Assembly (NCBI GenBank): GCA_039802605.1
Contig: JBDRWW010000005.1
Coordinates: 47,462-111,461 of the forward strand
Source of the DNA: a candidate division WOR-3 bacterium
GTDB taxonomy: Bacteria; Hydrothermota; Hydrothermia; LBFQ01
Reading direction: 5' to 3'
DNA: 64,000 nucleotides
A program made the position numbers. Shown piece after piece: positions 52,101-58,100 of the stretch. Positions within the stretch are counted from its first letter, which is position 1, and each line of letters begins with the position of its first letter.

Positions 52101-55100
52101 TCTCTCCGGTTTCTGGGTCTTTGGTGAAGACATGCTCGCCCAAAGCGTTTGTCCAAGCGGTGTTCATATCCGATACGAACTCGTTCCCCTCAGAAATAAT
52201 TTCCCTCCAAGACTCGGATTCCTCCCTTATGGAAGAAAGGTAGTTTTGAAAGGCTTGGGCTTCCCTCCTCCTCTCCTCAATTATATTCATGGTTAAAGCG
52301 TTAAGCCTTTTGTTTTCCGCAATGAATCTCTGGTTTGTAATTTCCAACCACTGGGGGTTATAAAAATTGGAGTTTAAAAAGGATATTGCTATTCTTGAAA
52401 ACTCAACATGCCTTTTCTCCGGCATTTGGAATGTAAAAACAAAGATGGACCCACCGCCATACCCATTGGAAATTCCAAACATATCCGTGTTTACAAAACC
52501 GGCCAAAGAACAGAACCCTAAGCCATACCTAAGGGTATCCCCCTTAACGGCTTTAATGTATATTTTGTAAGCCATGCTTTTCCCCCCGGGTACCATAGAG
52601 GGTGGAGCCTTTAACCTTTGATAATCAATGTCCTCAACATTCCAACCCTTATCCCAAATCAAGTTTATAATAAGGTCTTGGCAGGTTTTTTGGGATTCCA
52701 CGCTTAAAAACCCCTCTGCCCTCCAAACTTTACCGTTCAGGTTATAAACCGTAAAAGCCGAATACCCCATAGGGCTACCGACATAGGAGGATTTAAAGTT
52801 AAAACCATCCAACCTTAGGAATTCCCCGGTTGTATCCCCAACAAGTGAATAGGAAACCCCCCAAGCGGTTCCCAATTTTATAACGCTTCCGTTAAAGTTA
52901 TACCCCTCGGGAACCAGGGAATACATAGCCACTATTCCGGATGGGTCAAGGATTGAATCCACGGTAAATGGGATACGGTAAGATGGTGGGAGTATATGGA
53001 AACTTCCAACTATTTCTTTAAGCTCATTGAGATATAAGGTATCGTATTTTGATGGGTATAACATGGCGGATACCCGTGTGTATTCCTTTCCACCGATGAG
53101 GACGAATATGGCGTCATATTCTCCTTTACCTTCGTTAATGGCAAACTTAGAGGGGAAGAGGATTTTCCTTAGGTATATAGCCCTTTCGTTTTCTTTACCC
53201 TCTTTATACATAACCTCTGTGCCGTTTAGTACATAAGGGGATAAATCCCTTTTTAGAGAATTAAAAACCTCATCTATGCTTCCACGGGCAAAGGCCACCA
53301 TGCCCGAATAGCCCTTATCGTTATATGCGTAAAATATTCCACCAACGGTTTGAAAAGTCCAACCCTTATGGTGTCTAACATAATAGCCGTTTATAGGATC
53401 TACGAATACACCCTTCCCTTTGAATAGGGAATCCAAACCTACATTTGCACTTTCCGGAAGTTTAAACTCAAAGTTTTCTTTTTTCTTAGAAGCCCTAACG
53501 CAAGCCGCTAAAATCAGAACCAAAATTATAACTTTACGCATAGATTGGAATTATACGGATGTTTTAAAAATCTCGTTTAAATCAATTTCTAAGCCTTCTA
53601 AAACCTTGCCTTTAACCTTCCCCTCTTTTTCTGCAAAGGAATAAAGTTCATATTTTCCTTTATCACCCAAAACCCATACCTCCACTACCCTTTCACCGGG
53701 TAAAACAATCCAATACTCCTTAACACCAAACTCCTCATATATTTTGAATTTTTCATACCTATCCTTCCTATAACTTCCCGGCGATACTATTTCAACAACC
53801 ATGTCTGGGGTACCGAACAAACGGCCTTCTCTTATATTTTTCAAGTTATCTTTGGATATAAAAACTATATCCGGCTGAACAACAATATCCTCGGATAATA
53901 TAACATCAAAGGGTGCATCTAAGACTTCTCCCAAACCCTTTTCTTTAACAAATTCCCAAAGTTTAAATTCTAAATCCCTTGAAATTCTCTGATGCTCGAA
54001 GTTTAGTGCGGGCATTTCTATCAACCTCCCGTTAATAACCTCATAGCGCTTATCGTCTTCGAGTTTCAAATAATCCTCGTAAGTCCAAATCCTTTCCTTA
54101 ACCATTTCCTTCATCCGAACACCTCCTTTAAATCAACCTCTAAGCCTTCCAAAACCTTGCTTTTAACCTTCCCCTCTTTTTCTGCAAAGGAATAAAGTTC
54201 ATACTTTCCCTTCTCACCCAAAACCCATACCTCTACTGCCTTTTCTTCGGGATAAACAATCCAATACTCCTTAACACCAAACTCCTCATATATCCCCTTT
54301 TTTACAAATATATCCCTCCGTGCCGTTGATGGCGAAACTATTTCAACAACCAAGTCCGGAGCGCCCATTATTGCCTTTTCCCCTATTATGCCAAGCCTTT
54401 CCTTTGAAACATAAACTATATCCGGTTGTAATATGACATCTCCCCTAAACACAACATCTATGGGTGAGTAGTATATTTTTCCTATGCCCTTTTCCATAAC
54501 AAATTTTCTCATAACAAAATATAAACATCCGGCAATATCCTGATGCCAAGGAGTAGGTGCGGGCATTTCTGTCAACCTCCCGTTAATAACCTCATAACGC
54601 TTATCGTCTTCAAGTTTCAAATAATCCTCATAAGTCCAAATCCTTTCCTTAACCATTTCCTTCATCCGAACACCTCCTTTAAATCAACCTCTAAACCTTC
54701 CAAGACTTTGCTTTTAACTTTCCCCTCTTTTTCTGCAAAGGAATAAAGTTCATATTTTCCCTTCTCACCCAAAACCCATACCTCTACTGCCTTTTCTTCG
54801 GGATAAACAATCCAATACTCCTTAACACCAAAGTTTTCATATACCCCCTTCTTAACTACGGTATCCCTCCTAGTCGTTGATGGCGAAACTATTTCAACAA
54901 TCAAGTCGGGAACACCCATTATTGCCTTTTCCCCTATTATGCCAAGCCTTTCCTTTGAAACATAAACTATATCCGGTTGTAATACAACATCCCCACTGAA
55001 TAAAACATCTATGGGAGAAACAAACGCTTTACCTAAATTTTTCCCGTTTACAAAATTTACAAGGATTACAAAAATTTTGCCAACCAAATCCTGATGCCAA

Positions 55101-58100
55101 GGAGTAGGTGCGGGCATTTCTACCAACCTCCCGTTAATAACCTCATAACGCTTATCATCTTCAAGTTTTAAGTAATCCTCATATGTCCAAACCTTTTCCT
55201 TAACATCCACTTTCATTTAAACACCTCCTCAACATTAACCTTTAAACCCTTTAAAAGACAGCTTTCAACCTCCCCCTTTTCAACGGCTATGGAGTGTAAA
55301 ACATACTTACCTTCCTTCAAACACCATACCTCTATTGCCTTTTCACCCGGCAAAACTATCCAATATTCCCTTACATTATACTCCTCGTATATACTAAACT
55401 TTTCATACCTATCCCTCTTATAACTACCGGGCGATACAATTTCAGCAACCAAGTCCGGTATTCCAAAAAGGCGTCCTTCCTTTATGTTTTTTAAGTTTTC
55501 GTTTGATATAAAAACTATATCAGGCTGAACCACAAGTTTTTTAGAGATAATTACATCAAATGGGGATGGGATAATTTCGCCTAGGCCCTTATCCTCGACA
55601 AAGTTCCTCATCTTAGTTGCCAATATTATCAGTATTCTCTGGTGTTCAAAGTTTAGTGCGGGCATTTCTACCAACCTCCCGTTAATAACCTCATAGCGCT
55701 TATCATCTTCAAGTTTCAAATAATCCTCGTAAGTCCAAATCCTTTCCTTAACCATTTCCTTCATCCGAACACCTCCTTTAAATCAATTTCTAAACCTTCC
55801 AAAACCTTGCTTTTAACTTTCCCCTCTTTCTCTGCAAAGGAATAAAGTTCATATTTTCCTTTATCACCCAAAACCCACACCTCTATCGCCTTTTCATCGG
55901 GATAAACAATCCAATATTCCTTAACACCAAAGTTTTCATATATCTCCTTCTTAACTACCGTATCCCTCCTAGTCGTTGATGGCGAAACTATTTCAACAAT
56001 CAAGTTGGGTGTCCCGAACAAACTCCCTTCTTTGTCGGGTTGAACGACGATGTCTTCCGATGGTATAACATCAAAAGGGGAAGGTATGACCTTTAAACTC
56101 CCTTTCATAACCTCATAACGCTTGTCATCATCGAATTTGAAGTAATCTTCATAAGTCCAAGCCTTCCTTTCAACCACATCTTCCATACAAAGTAGTATTT
56201 TAAGGCAGAGAAGGAGTATATGTTTTAAACTTTTCGCCTTTAAAATACCCGCTTTACGGAGAGGTGCCCGAGCGGCCGAAGGGGCGCGACTGGAAATCGC
56301 GCGTCCCCCCAAAAGGGGGACCGAGGGTTCAAATCCCTCCCTCTCCGTTTTTGAAAAAGTACGTTTTGGGTTATCTCCTAAGGGGGGAAGAGATTTTATT
56401 GATTTACAAAAAAAGGGGATTGGGTGAAGGTTTGTATAACGGTTTTGGTGGAAAGATAGAGGTTGGCGAAAACTCTTTAAGGGCTTTAATAAGGGAAAGT
56501 AAGGAAGAAATTGGGGTTATACCCATTGAGTTTGAAAGGGTTGCGAGGCTGTATTTCTTTGACGATGTCGGTGTGGAAATGGCAGGTGATGTATTTTTCA
56601 TTACCAAATGGGAGGGGGAAATAGTTGAATCGGATGAGGCAAAACCCCAATGGTTTAAAATTTCCCAAATCCCTTATGATAAAATGTGGGAGGATGATAA
56701 AATTTGGCTACCTTTGGTTTTACAAGGAAAGAGAATAACCGGGAAATTTTACTTTGATGATTTATATTCCGATTCCCCAAAGTTAAAGGGTTATACGATA
56801 AAAGAGAGGATATTGGAAGAAATGTTTCAAATGTAAAGTCTCACTATGTGGTTTATAAAGCACAGAGTGATATACAAAACACCTTATCGGGGTTGCCCTA
56901 CCCTCTGCCCCGTCATTCACCAAACTTCCCACAAAAAAGTTTCTCAAAGGTATTATTTCCGCTTATGAGATTTGGTGTAAGGTTTTCTTACCTTTTGCCG
57001 ATAGAACCGGATGATGTAATTGAAGACGGTTTGTTGGTTGTTGAGGACGATACAATCATATACTGCGGAAAGTGGAGGGATGTTGAGGATATACCCGTAA
57101 TAGATACAAGACCATCTATTGGTTTGCCAACTTTGATAAACACTCATACACATACTGCAATGGTTGCTTATAGGGGGCTTGCGGATGATTTACCTTTATT
57201 TAAATGGCTTCAAGAGTATATATGGCCTGCGGAAGCGAAAACGGTTAATGAGGAAATGATAAAATTGGCGTTTAAACTGGCAATTGCGGAAATGGTTAAT
57301 GGGGGAACCGGTGCAATAAACGATATGTATTTCTTCCAAGAAGCTGCCGCGGAAGTTATGGAGGAAATAGGTTTTAGGGGTTTGTTGGGTGAGGGGTTAA
57401 TAGATTTTCCAACACCTTCATTTAAAAAACCCGAGGAAGGGATTAAGAAGGTTGAAAACCAGTTAAGGGCCAGGAATATGTATAAGTTTGTAAGGTTTTC
57501 CGTTTGCCTCCACGCCCCCTATTCTTGCTCCCCCGAACTTATAAAAACGGGTGTGGATATGGCAAGGGATTACGATGTGCCTGTTCATATGCATGTTGCG
57601 GAAACCCTAAACGAGGTTGATGAAATAACAAAAAGGTATGGCAAAAGACCGGTTGAATACCTTGAAAGTTTGGGAGTTCTAAGCGAAAAATTTATAGCAG
57701 CGCACTCCGTTCATCTAAACGAAGAAGAAATAAACATATATGCCGAAAGGGGTGTAAAGGTTGCGCACGACCCCCAGAGTAATATGAAGTTGTCTTCGGG
57801 TATAGCCCCGGTGGATGAGTATTTAAACAGGGGTATAACCGTTGGTTTGGCTACGGATGGGGCGGCTTCAAACAACGATTTGGATATGTTTGAGGAGATG
57901 CGGACAGCCGCTCTACTCCACAAGGTTAGGACGATGAATCCAGAAGTTATGGATGCAAAAACGGTGGTTAAGATGGCAACAATTGAAGGGGCAAAGGTTA
58001 TAGGATTTGATGATATAATAGGATCTTTGAAGGTTGGAAAAAAGGCGGACTTTATTGCCGTTTCCCTCGATTCCCCGCACATGCAACCCGTTTATGACCC

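Follow-up and report, generated by a model that had tools for sequence, protein, structure and literature searches.

Head-to-tail arrays of Uma2-family genes in a candidate division WOR-3 bacterium: old, constrained variants of one core helix on a scaffold in concerted evolution

Why should a small bacterial genome keep rows of closely similar genes whose products differ mainly in a single helix? This question is raised by a stretch of 64 kb (the window, to which coordinates refer unless contig numbering is indicated) from the genome analysed here (G000; 1.65 Mb, 90% complete). Positions 53551-56186 of the window contain, on the minus strand, five ORFs of the Uma2 family (PF05685) arranged head to tail. 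The array and its surroundings comprise the following features:

51949..53541, minus strand: co-directional ORF of 530 aa with a lipoprotein-like N-terminus, beginning 10 nt past the array
53551..54114, minus strand: gene 5, 187 aa, backbone A (AAX), last in the array (E 2.6e-37)
53932..53988, minus strand: variable helix of gene 5, residues 43-61 (alignment)
54111..54135, minus strand: example of a conserved junction, AAGGAGGTG followed by the ATGA stop/start overlap (read from the sequence)
54111..54665, minus strand: gene 4, 184 aa, backbone B (BBX; E 5.8e-35)
54483..54539, minus strand: variable helix of gene 4, residues 43-61 (alignment)
54662..55216, minus strand: gene 3, 184 aa, backbone B (BBX; E 5.1e-37), matching 9y1l (1e-38); the modelled copy
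55034..55090, minus strand: variable helix of gene 3, residues 43-61 (alignment)
55213..55764, minus strand: gene 2, 183 aa, class AAY, i.e., backbone A with an alternative C-terminus (E 4.8e-35)
55582..55638, minus strand: variable helix of gene 2, residues 43-61 (alignment and entropy; helix alpha1 by the model)
55761..56186, minus strand: gene 1, Uma2 remnant of 141 aa with two in-frame deletions (ORF and alignment; E 2.9e-18)
56215..56244, minus strand: TTTAAA-18-TATACT ahead of gene 1, a promoter-like pair of hexamers (weak evidence)
56257..56348, plus strand: tRNA-Ser(GGA) (ARAGORN), divergent from the array and 71 nt upstream of it

The five genes scored 66-128 bits against PF05685 (cut-off 27), with E-values of 2.6e-37 to 4.8e-35 for four of them and 2.9e-18 for the internally deleted fifth. 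All five also matched the PADLOC profile PDC-S03 (E 7.4e-48 to 2.3e-32, the best match spanning the full length), and both profile matches of a preliminary description of this locus were thus reproduced (down to 2.6e-37 and 7.4e-48, respectively). Gene 1 lacks the switch loop, the entire variable helix together with the active-site His, and 12 residues past the PD strand; its Pfam match covers profile positions 91-171 only. The ATGA overlap is repeated at 54662-54665, 55213-55216, and 55761-55764, and a 4-nt overlap was present at 10 of 10 internal junctions in the five arrays of this genome. The Shine-Dalgarno-like AAGGAGGTG sits within the C-terminal LKEVFG codons of the preceding gene, and the C-terminus of gene 5 deviates from the junction consensus. 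An assignment to type II toxin-antitoxin systems ('solo toxin'; PMC2701414) was rejected, since the arrays contain only Uma2 genes and no antitoxin gene, the 4-nt overlaps leaving no room for another one. Co-directional downstream genes begin 6-35 nt past all five arrays. In the window this is the 530-aa ORF, for which no Pfam or NCBIfam family was matched and whose flank is 91% identical in the congener G004; it probably belongs to the same transcription unit as the array. The promoter-like hexamers did not exceed chance (6 sites against 7.3 expected in shuffles), and transcription was represented by a single 160-nt RNA-library contig at a junction common to other copies. The array genes are co-oriented, tightly packed, and probably co-transcribed.

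A search of the whole genome recovered 15 Uma2 matches, all 15 over the Pfam cut-off, in five clusters (contig numbering: C5:101012-103647, C1:303658-305859, C2:100439-101472, C12:34981-36080, and C17:8238-9346), the same coordinates as given before for 15 genes in five head-to-tail arrays. Ten of the 12 genomes of the family, G000 included, carry Uma2 matches (3 to 36 each) compared with 5 of 121 genomes in a phylum sample, in agreement with an expansion that is common to the family and rare outside it. The genes are dispensable, since two congeners (G003, 89% complete, and G001, 57% complete) have none. Some details had to be revised: the largest array among the fetched loci, many of which end at contig ends, had six genes rather than the seven described earlier, and a tRNA gene lies within 60 nt of the array end at 4 of 56 fetched loci, contrary to the earlier statement that no locus in relatives abuts one. 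The adjacency of three of the five G000 arrays to tRNA genes was confirmed; its probability is about 5e-5 under uniform placement and, by a rough estimate, about 1e-3 if placement is restricted to intergenic gaps. This adjacency is the sole element-like trait of the arrays. Of the 78 neighbouring ORFs, 47 were scanned against Pfam; eleven matched no family, and the named families were all housekeeping (TatC, AlaRS, RF, UvrA, LolA, peroxiredoxin, Kdo transferase, EF-G, GatB, AcrB, and others). No defence, methyltransferase-restriction, or mobile-element gene was among these 47 ORFs, and no integrase, transposase, or repeat boundaries were found at any of the five sites. A mobile element or integron cassette array was rejected as well, as no integrase or transposase family was matched among the neighbours scanned and the cassettes all belong to a single family.

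An AlphaFold2 model of gene 3 (pLDDT 93.9) predicts a restriction-endonuclease-like fold as in the solved Uma2 members 6okh, 1wdj, 9y1l, and 3ot2 (TM 0.92, 0.80, 0.77, and 0.76, respectively). In the active-site motif defined for the family, H ... PD ... EXX ... K, the Lys lies on the second core helix (PMC551604); the motif residues are kept in nearly all of the 115 near-full copies (H41 in 114, D82 in 115, E108 in 115, K122 in 114). The literature search found no published activity for any Uma2 protein, and the solved homologues 9y1l, 6okh, and 3ot2 are uncharacterised. The hypervariable segment, previously placed at about residues 41-60, was confirmed by entropy and identity and lies at residues 43-61. 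It corresponds to the first core helix (alpha1) of the PD-(D/E)XK fold, which starts at the conserved active-site His(-Gln) and spans model residues 38-57 (39-58 in the protein, as Met1 was absent from the query). Entropy in the helix was 2.5-2.8 bits as compared to 0.3-1.3 elsewhere (115 copies). Mean pairwise nucleotide identity in 5-codon bins (14 copies) was 0.87-0.97 at codons 6-35 and 0.39-0.44 at codons 46-55, so that the ends are indeed homogenised relative to the middle. The claim that the first 35 codons are almost identical at the DNA level was overstated, however: in all 105 pairs formed by the 15 G000 copies, no identical tract exceeded 77 nt, so that very recent conversion has not taken place either. 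Helix columns 44, 48, 52, 55, and 56 are 83-100% hydrophobic with the variable columns between them; the differences between copies are thus concentrated on the outward face of alpha1. In other lineages alpha1 was the least conserved segment in all five arrays examined.

The 115 copies, from nine genomes, formed 80 helix clusters at 70% identity, of which 21 had at least two members and three spanned both genera. In the 15 cross-genus pairs of the same type, residues 35-66 had a pS of 0.64 and a pN of 0.09 (elsewhere 0.73 and 0.18). Across 53 between-genome same-type pairs the helix pN/pS was 0.22, a value biased downward because types were defined by amino-acid similarity. By the Nei-Gojobori method (91 pairs), pS and pN/pS were 0.34 and 0.13 in the N-terminal part and 0.71 and 0.67 in the variable part, close to earlier values (0.41 and 0.25; 0.71 and 0.60). 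No comparison brought the helix pN/pS up to 1; it was 0.59-0.74 between copies with the same backbone and 0.28-0.81 in L114, a young array from a Prevotellaceae MAG. Pairs of the same type within one genome made up 6 of 59, where shuffles gave 8.6 ± 2.7. The helix variants therefore are old, constrained types that are not hypermutating and in part are common to two genera, and the substitution pattern indicates that each type is kept by purifying selection.

The scaffold around the helix has a different history. As described before, two backbones recombine in G000 (its 15 copies, the deleted one included, comprise 6 A, 6 B, and 3 chimeras), and all four combinations of the segments mid1 and mid2 were found (AA 53, BB 33, BA 21, AB 5). 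Nucleotide identity of the N-terminal part was 0.902 within G000, 0.849 to G004, 0.750 to G002, and 0.72-0.745 to the other genus, whereas the helix showed no lineage signal in the same comparison. Homogenisation since the split of G000 and G004 must have been modest, because identity within G004 (0.846) did not exceed that between the two genomes (0.849). Own-genome paralogues with a different helix were closer than the foreign partner with the same helix in a fraction of 0.56 for the N-terminus, 0.08 for mid1, 0.32 for mid2, and 0.42 for the C-terminus. The scaffold thus is in concerted evolution within genomes, most strongly in the first approximately 35 codons, and helix-type orthology weakens with distance from the helix. 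Species-wise monophyly of Uma2 genes, which is taken as independent proliferation in PMC551604, could partly reflect such concerted evolution. These results favour the alternative already named in the preliminary description, old divergence combined with gene conversion of the flanks, since cross-genus helix types show near-saturated synonymous sites and low pN, gene ends track the genome instead of the helix type, and pN/pS, the reverse-transcriptase search, contig variation, and same-type pairs made no case for ongoing positive selection or hypermutation.

All five sites are syntenic in G004, with flanks 89-94% identical, but gene counts differ from those in G000 at one site (4 vs. 2) and at another (at least 4 vs. 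2). Five of 14 G000 helices were matched at 74% or more among the G004 copies, one of them at the syntenic site. The helix type of gene 3 occurs in G004 at another chromosomal site (84% identical to the copy at L002:686-1237), and the helix of gene 5 resembles the helices of one copy in the C12 array (89% identity) and of one in G004 (95%). Copy number and cassette position thus differ between two species with flanks about 90% identical, the cassette order being taken from short-read metagenome assemblies in which many arrays stop at contig ends.

The best overall explanation, to which we assign roughly an even chance of being correct, is a co-transcribed array of active Uma2 nucleases with a swappable specificity helix, reshuffled via the conserved gene ends. 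Each array would be a row of small, stand-alone Uma2 proteins, translationally coupled and putative PD-(D/E)XK nucleases. Where two genes meet, their conserved 3' and 5' ends would make up a junction of about 200 nt, and these junctions may provide the homology for unequal crossing-over and gene conversion, both inside a site and from one of the five sites to another; by such exchange helix-plus-core cassettes would be gained, lost, and moved, and the scaffold homogenised. If alpha1 is a specificity module for a nucleic-acid substrate or a partner, the array would represent a repertoire of specificities expressed together. In the weakest step, this repertoire would most likely discriminate foreign or aberrant nucleic acid in a defence-like manner, as hinted at by the PDC-S03 match and by Uma2 genes reported within type III CRISPR loci of Microcystis (PMC11855584). 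The placement of the arrays among housekeeping genes and not in defence islands speaks against a defence reading.

A rather unlikely alternative is selfish proliferation (Feder and Bujnicki, 2005), in which nuclease genes multiply for themselves without gain for the host, nicking stimulates recombination and tandem duplication, and helix diversity reflects diverging rare target sites as in homing endonucleases. This hypothesis, put forward in PMC551604, is consistent with the patchy distribution among close relatives (0 to 36 matches within the family), the insertion into closely spaced, terminator-free runs of co-directional genes, the tRNA-adjacent arrays with independent tRNA-adjacent copies in relatives, and Uma2 genes described elsewhere in hox, PFOR, and CRISPR operons (PMC4963859, PMC10052474, PMC11855584). 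However, the five sites lack integrase, transposase, and repeat boundaries and are conserved between species, and same-helix duplicates within genomes are not in excess, which argues against a recent burst. Purifying selection on active site and helix types across genera counts little here, since a selfish element would need an intact nuclease too. We also consider it unlikely that the variable alpha1 face is a subunit interface, catalytic specificity being equal in all copies, and that its diversity prevents mixed dimers among co-translated paralogues or sets particular A/B heteromers. Columns 49, 50, 51, and 53 are hydrophobic or aromatic in 52-72%, an unusual composition for a face exposed to solvent; the entries of the solved homologues contain two chains, or three in the case of 1wdj, for which a single large contact between chains A and B, with 153 residue pairs, is described (PMC7582526); A-type and B-type middle parts occur together in every G000 array; and the Glu preceding alpha1 is replaced by Trp or Leu in B-type copies. 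Yet the arrays of relatives obey no A/B rule (single genes, A-only runs, and B-only runs occur), and an interface code alone leaves unexplained why 15-36 otherwise equivalent enzymes exist and why the same helix types are retained across genera.

The two remaining explanations concern the helix itself. Relaxed constraint, with an unconstrained outer face of alpha1 and arrays of neutral duplicates in which gene conversion keeps the ends alike, would fit the helix pN/pS below 1 throughout, but is already disfavoured and very improbable: helix types retain at least 70% amino-acid identity across genera at the pS and pN given above, the catalytic residues are each retained in 114-115 of 115 near-full copies, and core-facing helix positions are strictly hydrophobic. 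Recent transfer would need a low pS, unlike the observed 0.64. The short, sharply bounded variable tract flanked by conserved sequence might suggest that the helix is actively hypermutated, whether by a diversity-generating retroelement or by some comparable targeted process. This reading has next to no likelihood and is refuted as far as the data reach, as G000 has no reverse transcriptase (0 PF00078 matches at 90% completeness), helix types have been conserved from one species or genus to another, and the contig pieces listed from three DNA runs of three studies carried no other letters (two in one X2 piece) across the tract in genes 2, 3, and 4, contigs being able to hide rare variants.

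The preliminary description stated that a literature search had found nothing, which is incorrect, as Uma2 expansions and paralogue cassettes were published in 2005 and 2009. The literature already contains lineage-specific expansions of Uma2/COG4636, tandem copies, and 'cassettes of paralogous genes' (PMC551604, PMC2701414, PMC1274311, PMC9403480), and the phenomenon as such is of a known kind. The Uma2/COG4636/DUF820 genes of cyanobacteria and Thermus share profile, fold, and the H-PD-EXX-K motif with those studied here, are likewise expanded in some genomes, absent from close relatives, and adjoined by other family members, and, according to PMC551604, have no linked methyltransferase or mobile-element genes either. 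The present arrays belong to a different lineage, a hot-spring bacterium, and contain nearly all copies, whereas tandem copies are called rare in PMC551604. In the Uma2 literature found, there was no description of coupled genes with 4-nt overlaps, variable alpha1 types conserved across genera, a concerted scaffold, or cassettes relocated among conserved, often tRNA-adjacent sites. New here are the old, constrained helix types, the concerted scaffold, the turnover relative to a syntenic congener, and the same helix pattern in other lineages.

Among other systems, the nearest characterised relatives by fold are the archaeal Holliday-junction resolvases Hjc/Hje, which served as modelling templates for COG4636 (PMC551604) and share the PD-(D/E)XK core. 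The gene 3 model matched Hjc weakly (4tkd, E 0.028); this is not membership, as Uma2 proteins carry the migrated lysine on their second helix, have additional beta elements at both the N- and the C-terminus, and are not known to cleave junctions. PDC-S03, matched strongly over its full length (7.4e-48), is a phage-defence candidate only, for which the literature search found no main-text mention. The 'S' presumably denotes a single-gene system, whereas the genes here come in arrays, and these lie outside defence islands, with no location among defence genes seen in the 47 neighbouring ORFs of the five arrays. Diversity-generating retroelements likewise feature a short variable tract in a conserved gene, but here neither reverse transcriptase nor template repeat was found, and the variants are stable and old. 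In HsdS of type I restriction-modification systems, target-recognition domains are shuffled by recombination in the conserved sequence that flanks them, so that a constant scaffold carries a repertoire of specificities. The arrays would work alike, without membership in that system, in having variable modules between conserved recombining flanks. They differ in lacking methyltransferase, inverted copies, and recombinase, in being all direct repeats that appear expressed and not silent, and in varying one helix of the catalytic fold itself instead of a separate DNA-binding domain. With frameworks alike and one active-site-adjacent helix different in almost every copy, the arrays look like a stored repertoire of specificities.

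The source genome (G000; 1.65 Mb in 23 contigs, 90% complete) was searched as a whole, and the 15 Uma2 (PF05685) matches were recovered, all above the Pfam cut-off, exactly where the preliminary description had placed them in five arrays. The two backbone types and the chimeras between them that it proposed are plain in the alignment (six copies of type A, six of type B, three chimeras), and its distinction between a conserved N-terminal part and a variable part was reproduced, the recomputed identity, pS and pN/pS values matching within small margins. Among the 14 helix-bearing copies, mean pairwise nucleotide identity is 0.87–0.97 over codons 6–35 and 0.39–0.44 over codons 46–55. 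The wording that the gene starts are almost identical at the DNA level overstated the similarity: no two of the 15 copies (105 pairs) share an identical tract longer than 77 nt.

Nei-Gojobori estimates for two segments of the G000 copies
Codons 6–35: pS 0.34, pN 0.04, pN/pS 0.13 (91 pairs)
Codons 46–62: pS 0.71, pN 0.47, pN/pS 0.67 (91 pairs)

The array in the window comprises five genes.

Array in the window and its immediate neighbours
51949–53541, - strand: 530-aa ORF with a lipoprotein-like signal, starting 10 nt downstream of the array
53551–54114, - strand: Uma2 gene 5, full-length ORF
54111–54665, - strand: Uma2 gene 4, full-length ORF
54662–55216, - strand: Uma2 gene 3, full-length ORF
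55213–55764, - strand: Uma2 gene 2, full-length ORF
55761–56186, - strand: Uma2 gene 1, ORF, a 141-aa remnant with two in-frame deletions
56257–56348: tRNA-Ser(GGA), divergent, 71 nt upstream of the array

The four full-length genes (183–187 aa) match the Pfam family end to end (E 2.6e-37 to 4.8e-35); an NCBIfam search returned no matching model. Every stop in this array overlaps the next start as ATGA, a 4-nt overlap that occurs at all 10 internal junctions of the G000 arrays, and the C-terminal codons of the upstream gene contain, as read from the sequence, AAGGAGGTG a few bases before the next start; the genes therefore appear built for translational coupling. The promoter-proximal gene 1 has lost the loop before helix 1 (the switch loop), the entire variable helix, and, following the PD strand, another 12 residues; it may be what a recombination event left behind or a copy in decay. 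In the congener G004 the corresponding gene falls beyond a contig end. The 530-aa ORF belongs to no family in Pfam or NCBIfam and is kept beside the array in G004, where the flank is 91% identical. Scanning for promoters and terminators revealed no excess of sites over shuffled sequences. A claim of expression from RNA run X20 was discarded, since it came down to a single 160-nt contig at a junction common to other copies, and joints in sequencing-run contigs were rejected as evidence of rearrangement because their sides measure only 21–25 nt and probably derive from other copies.

An AlphaFold2 model of gene 3, calculated from a 104-row family alignment with a query lacking Met1 (model numbers thus equal protein numbers minus 1), reached a pLDDT of 93.9 and contains a 20-residue helix at protein residues 39–58. 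The model superposes on the Uma2 structures 6okh (TM 0.92), 9y1l, 3ot2, and 1wdj, all uncharacterised and also matched by sequence. Model and superposition place the variable residues 43–61 in the first core helix (alpha1) of the PD-(D/E)XK fold. This helix begins directly after the His-Gln pair, which Feder and Bujnicki (PMC551604) assigned to the active site. Its columns 44, 48, 52, 55, and 56 are hydrophobic in 83–100% of the copies and mark the side of the helix packed against the sheet. Entropy in the intervening columns is 2.6–3.6 bits; aromatic or aliphatic residues are frequent at 49, 50, 51, and 53, and column 53 is dominated by Arg, Trp, and Tyr. When the gene 3 product was predicted as a homodimer from the family alignment, the scores were 0.00 and 0.00 and no interface emerged, which is evidence neither for nor against a place of the variable face at a subunit contact. 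No natural double-domain Uma2 fusion that could serve as a dimer proxy occurred among the longer homologues, the three found all carrying unrelated N-terminal extensions.

Uma2 matches are present in 10 of the 12 genomes of the GTDB family, G000 included, with 3 to 36 apiece; none was found in G001 (57% complete) or G003 (89% complete), which belong to the same genus. An even sample of the phylum contained a match in 5 of 121 genomes, G000 and one family member counted in. Public runs containing this stretch are hot-spring metagenomes, and beyond the genus the nearest named records are MAGs with the titles Thermotogota bacterium and Aquificaceae bacterium. Of 50,697 phage records, a single one, that of a Dorea phage, contains a relative (33% identity); the family is not typically phage-borne. 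For comparison, arrays were taken from ten genomes (G002 and G004–G010 of the family, outgroups G019 and G126; loci L001–L056), and a profile built from the G000 copies, applied to these loci and to G000 itself, identified 171 Uma2 ORFs, of which 115 near-full copies (at least 200 bits, spanning profile positions ≤10 to ≥170) were kept. His41 is present in 114 of these, Asp82 and Glu108 in all 115, and Lys122 in 114; judged by these catalytic residues, every near-full copy looks like a working enzyme. The 56 ORFs left out are 31 copies of a third backbone, fragments or copies cut by contig ends, and low-scoring copies of G126 and G019.

The third, divergent backbone lies inside arrays in G002 and in members of the other genus, with 40–80 bits to the G000-based profile (L013:5103–6757, L016:3389–5188, and one or two genes in most arrays of L017–L046, e.g., L026:3392–3970); no copy was found in G000. 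It shares the conserved N-terminus and likewise has a variable helix 1; His-Gly replaces His-Gln and Asp70 is lost, with the His, Asp82, Glu108, and Lys122 kept.

Nucleotide identity of the N-terminal part, computed over codons 6–34, follows the genome.

N-terminal nucleotide identity within and between genomes
Within G000: 0.902
G000 to G004 (congener): 0.849
G000 to G002: 0.750
G000 to the other genus: 0.72–0.745
Within G002: 0.857
G002 to any other genome: 0.72–0.75

The C-terminal half shows the same genome-following pattern. Identity within G004 (0.846) is not above that between G000 and G004 (0.849), which counts against a strong recent effect. The helix has a nucleotide identity of 0.39–0.49 in all comparisons and carries no lineage signal. 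In 106 comparisons, paralogues of the same genome with a different helix were set, segment by segment, against a foreign partner with the same helix. The own-genome paralogue was the closer one in 56% of cases at the N-terminus, 8% over residues 62–104, 32% over residues 105–146, and 42% at the C-terminus. Orthology is thus restricted to the helix plus the core next to it and weakens toward both gene ends, the mark left by recombination or gene conversion there. The two middle segments (mid1 and mid2) occur in all four possible pairings (AA 53, BB 33, BA 21, AB 5), and a B middle with the alternative C-terminus was not encountered among the copies classed. Inspection of the relatives' arrays led us to abandon the idea that A and B strictly alternate or pair.

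Clustering of the 19-residue helix at 70% amino-acid identity yielded 80 types, 21 of them with at least two members and three spanning both genera of the family. The 15 cross-genus pairs of the same type have a pS of 0.64 and a pN of 0.09 over residues 35–66 (rest of the gene: 0.73 and 0.18); being near synonymous saturation with low pN, they do not stem from recent transfer, and the helix has kept its amino acids. For the 53 same-type pairs between genomes, pN/pS of the helix is 0.22, similar to the 0.15–0.21 of the remaining protein. The ratios of same-type pairs are biased downward because the types were defined through amino-acid similarity. Even with this bias, types that outlast synonymous saturation do not fit a free-running or hypermutating tract. 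No reverse transcriptase was found in G000 (90% complete), and contigs from three DNA runs of three studies showed, among the pieces listed, no other letters in the variable tracts of genes 2–4, apart from two in one piece of run X2. Recent local duplication likewise left no sign, as same-type pairs within one genome (6 of 59) are not in excess over the 8.6 ± 2.7 expected from shuffled labels.

All five array sites of G000 are syntenic in G004, with flanks 89–94% identical over approximately 3 kb. Many of the relatives' arrays stop at contig ends, so that their copy counts are lower bounds. The content of the sites differs: the C12 site, matched on both flanks, has two genes in G000 vs. four in G004, and the C17 site two vs. 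at least four. Five of the 14 helices in G000 have a match of at least 74% among the 14 copies recovered from G004, and just one of the five matches is in synteny. In G004 the helix of window gene 3 is found beside the C17 flank, and one helix type is carried by backbone A in G000 and by backbone B in G004. These turnover data come from short-read metagenome assemblies, so the cassette order is provisional.

The 80 loci obtained from other species mostly have a single Uma2 copy within 4 kb. In the five outside arrays compared (two in Aquificaceae-titled MAGs, one each in a Rifleibacteriota- and a Prevotellaceae-titled MAG, and one in G019), the helix is always the least conserved segment, with an amino-acid identity of 0.17–0.67 vs. 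0.50–0.92 for other segments. This agreement indicates that the variable helix is a trait of Uma2 arrays generally, beyond this lineage. The Prevotellaceae-titled array (L114:66–2442) consists of four overlapping head-to-tail genes that are young duplicates (pS 0.20–0.25 for three), and its amino-acid changes concentrate in the variable helix, where pN is 2.3–4.5 times that of the rest at equal pS, yet pN/pS is only 0.28–0.81. It would be a good system for studying early divergence.

All five G000 arrays lie within tight co-directional strings of housekeeping genes (TatC/AlaRS/RF/UvrA; LolA/peroxiredoxin/carboxyltransferase; Kdo transferase/tRNA-Gly/patatin/EF-G; GatB/acyltransferase; AcrB/OEP/NUDIX). 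Among the 47 scanned of the 78 ORFs within approximately 7 kb, no integrase, transposase, DNA methyltransferase, or known defence gene was detected. Array ends lie near tRNA genes far more often than by chance, without an integrase nearby. Three of the five G000 arrays adjoin one (Ser at 71 nt, Gly at 35 nt, Glu at 113 nt), for which the chance is about 5e-5 with 46 tRNA genes and uniform placement and, by a rough estimate, about 1e-3 if placement is confined to intergenic gaps. In the relatives, a tRNA gene occurs within 60 nt of the array end at 4 of 56 loci, namely two syntenic G004 sites and two independent ones (tRNA-Cys in G002, tRNA-Arg in G007), and within 300 nt at two more. The tRNA genes located at array ends (window 56257–56348; G000 C12:36115–36187 and C17:9459–9535; L010:1782–1856; L017:9151–9225) are 12–113 nt away. 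The congeners without Uma2, G003 and G001, offered no clean empty site; their tRNA-Ser directly adjoins a homologue of ORF 56848–58257, which we take from its motifs to be an amidohydrolase, a different gene lies on the opposite side, and no match to NUDIX was reported. As annotated in the window, the NUDIX ORF (56264–56836, + strand) begins within tRNA-Ser, so its true start must be further downstream. Two overlapping ORFs at 58860–59833 (+ strand; 134 and 202 aa), each with FG-GAP repeats, could represent a single gene that a frameshift or an assembly error has divided.

The family and its migrated-lysine active site were defined by Feder and Bujnicki (PMC551604), who describe massive, patchy expansions with tandem copies of up to four in a row and more than 2% of the genes of Gloeobacter, report that no linked genes were found, and propose selfish, recombinogenic nucleases. 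Further expansions are given by Omelchenko et al. (PMC1274311; 15 paralogues in Thermus) and Cheng et al. (PMC9403480; 15–17 copies in some Thermosynechococcus strains), and Steczkiewicz et al. (PMC3424549) enter the family as a predicted endonuclease. Within the Uma2/DUF820/COG4636 literature outside subscription journals and supplements, nothing was found on a variable helix, concerted evolution, or cassette relocation, and no paper on PDC-S03.

It is well supported that the constant scaffold is homogenised within genomes, that old, selectively kept alpha1 variants escape this homogenisation, and that cassettes are exchanged through conserved junctions of about 200 nt. Arrays of this kind are already known, and this locus is an unusually clear case; it cleanly illustrates, in a bacterium, how a scaffold evolves in concert around a segment that is spared homogenisation. 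It is also a caution that Uma2 paralogues may cluster by species in trees without having proliferated independently. Few uncharacterised nuclease families are larger than Uma2/COG4636, which is expanded in Thermus and numerous cyanobacteria and, to our knowledge, has been assigned no function in twenty years. Because the differences between paralogues are concentrated in a 19-residue helix beside the active site, and because the helix variants are old and selectively kept, helix swaps should reveal what the family recognises; the paralogues, otherwise near-identical and thermostable, are suited to such swaps, which makes the helix result a usable lead into this twenty-year-old question.

The variable helix presumably sets specificity, and the arrays may serve defence rather than themselves. 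The whole reading, by which the arrays are a germline-encoded recognition repertoire, that is, a nuclease battery with a constant scaffold, a specificity-setting helix, and a role in methylase-free innate defence, we consider rather unlikely. By this repertoire reading, one constant, gene-converted scaffold would bear a battery of nucleases, and a single variable helix anchored at the catalytic His would determine what each enzyme recognises. The ancient helix "alleles" would form a library kept across genera and be re-dealt among chromosomal sites by recombination via the conserved gene junctions, giving a multi-specificity innate defence without a methylase that would be common to the whole Uma2 family. 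Such a repertoire would work much as variable-receptor gene clusters do.
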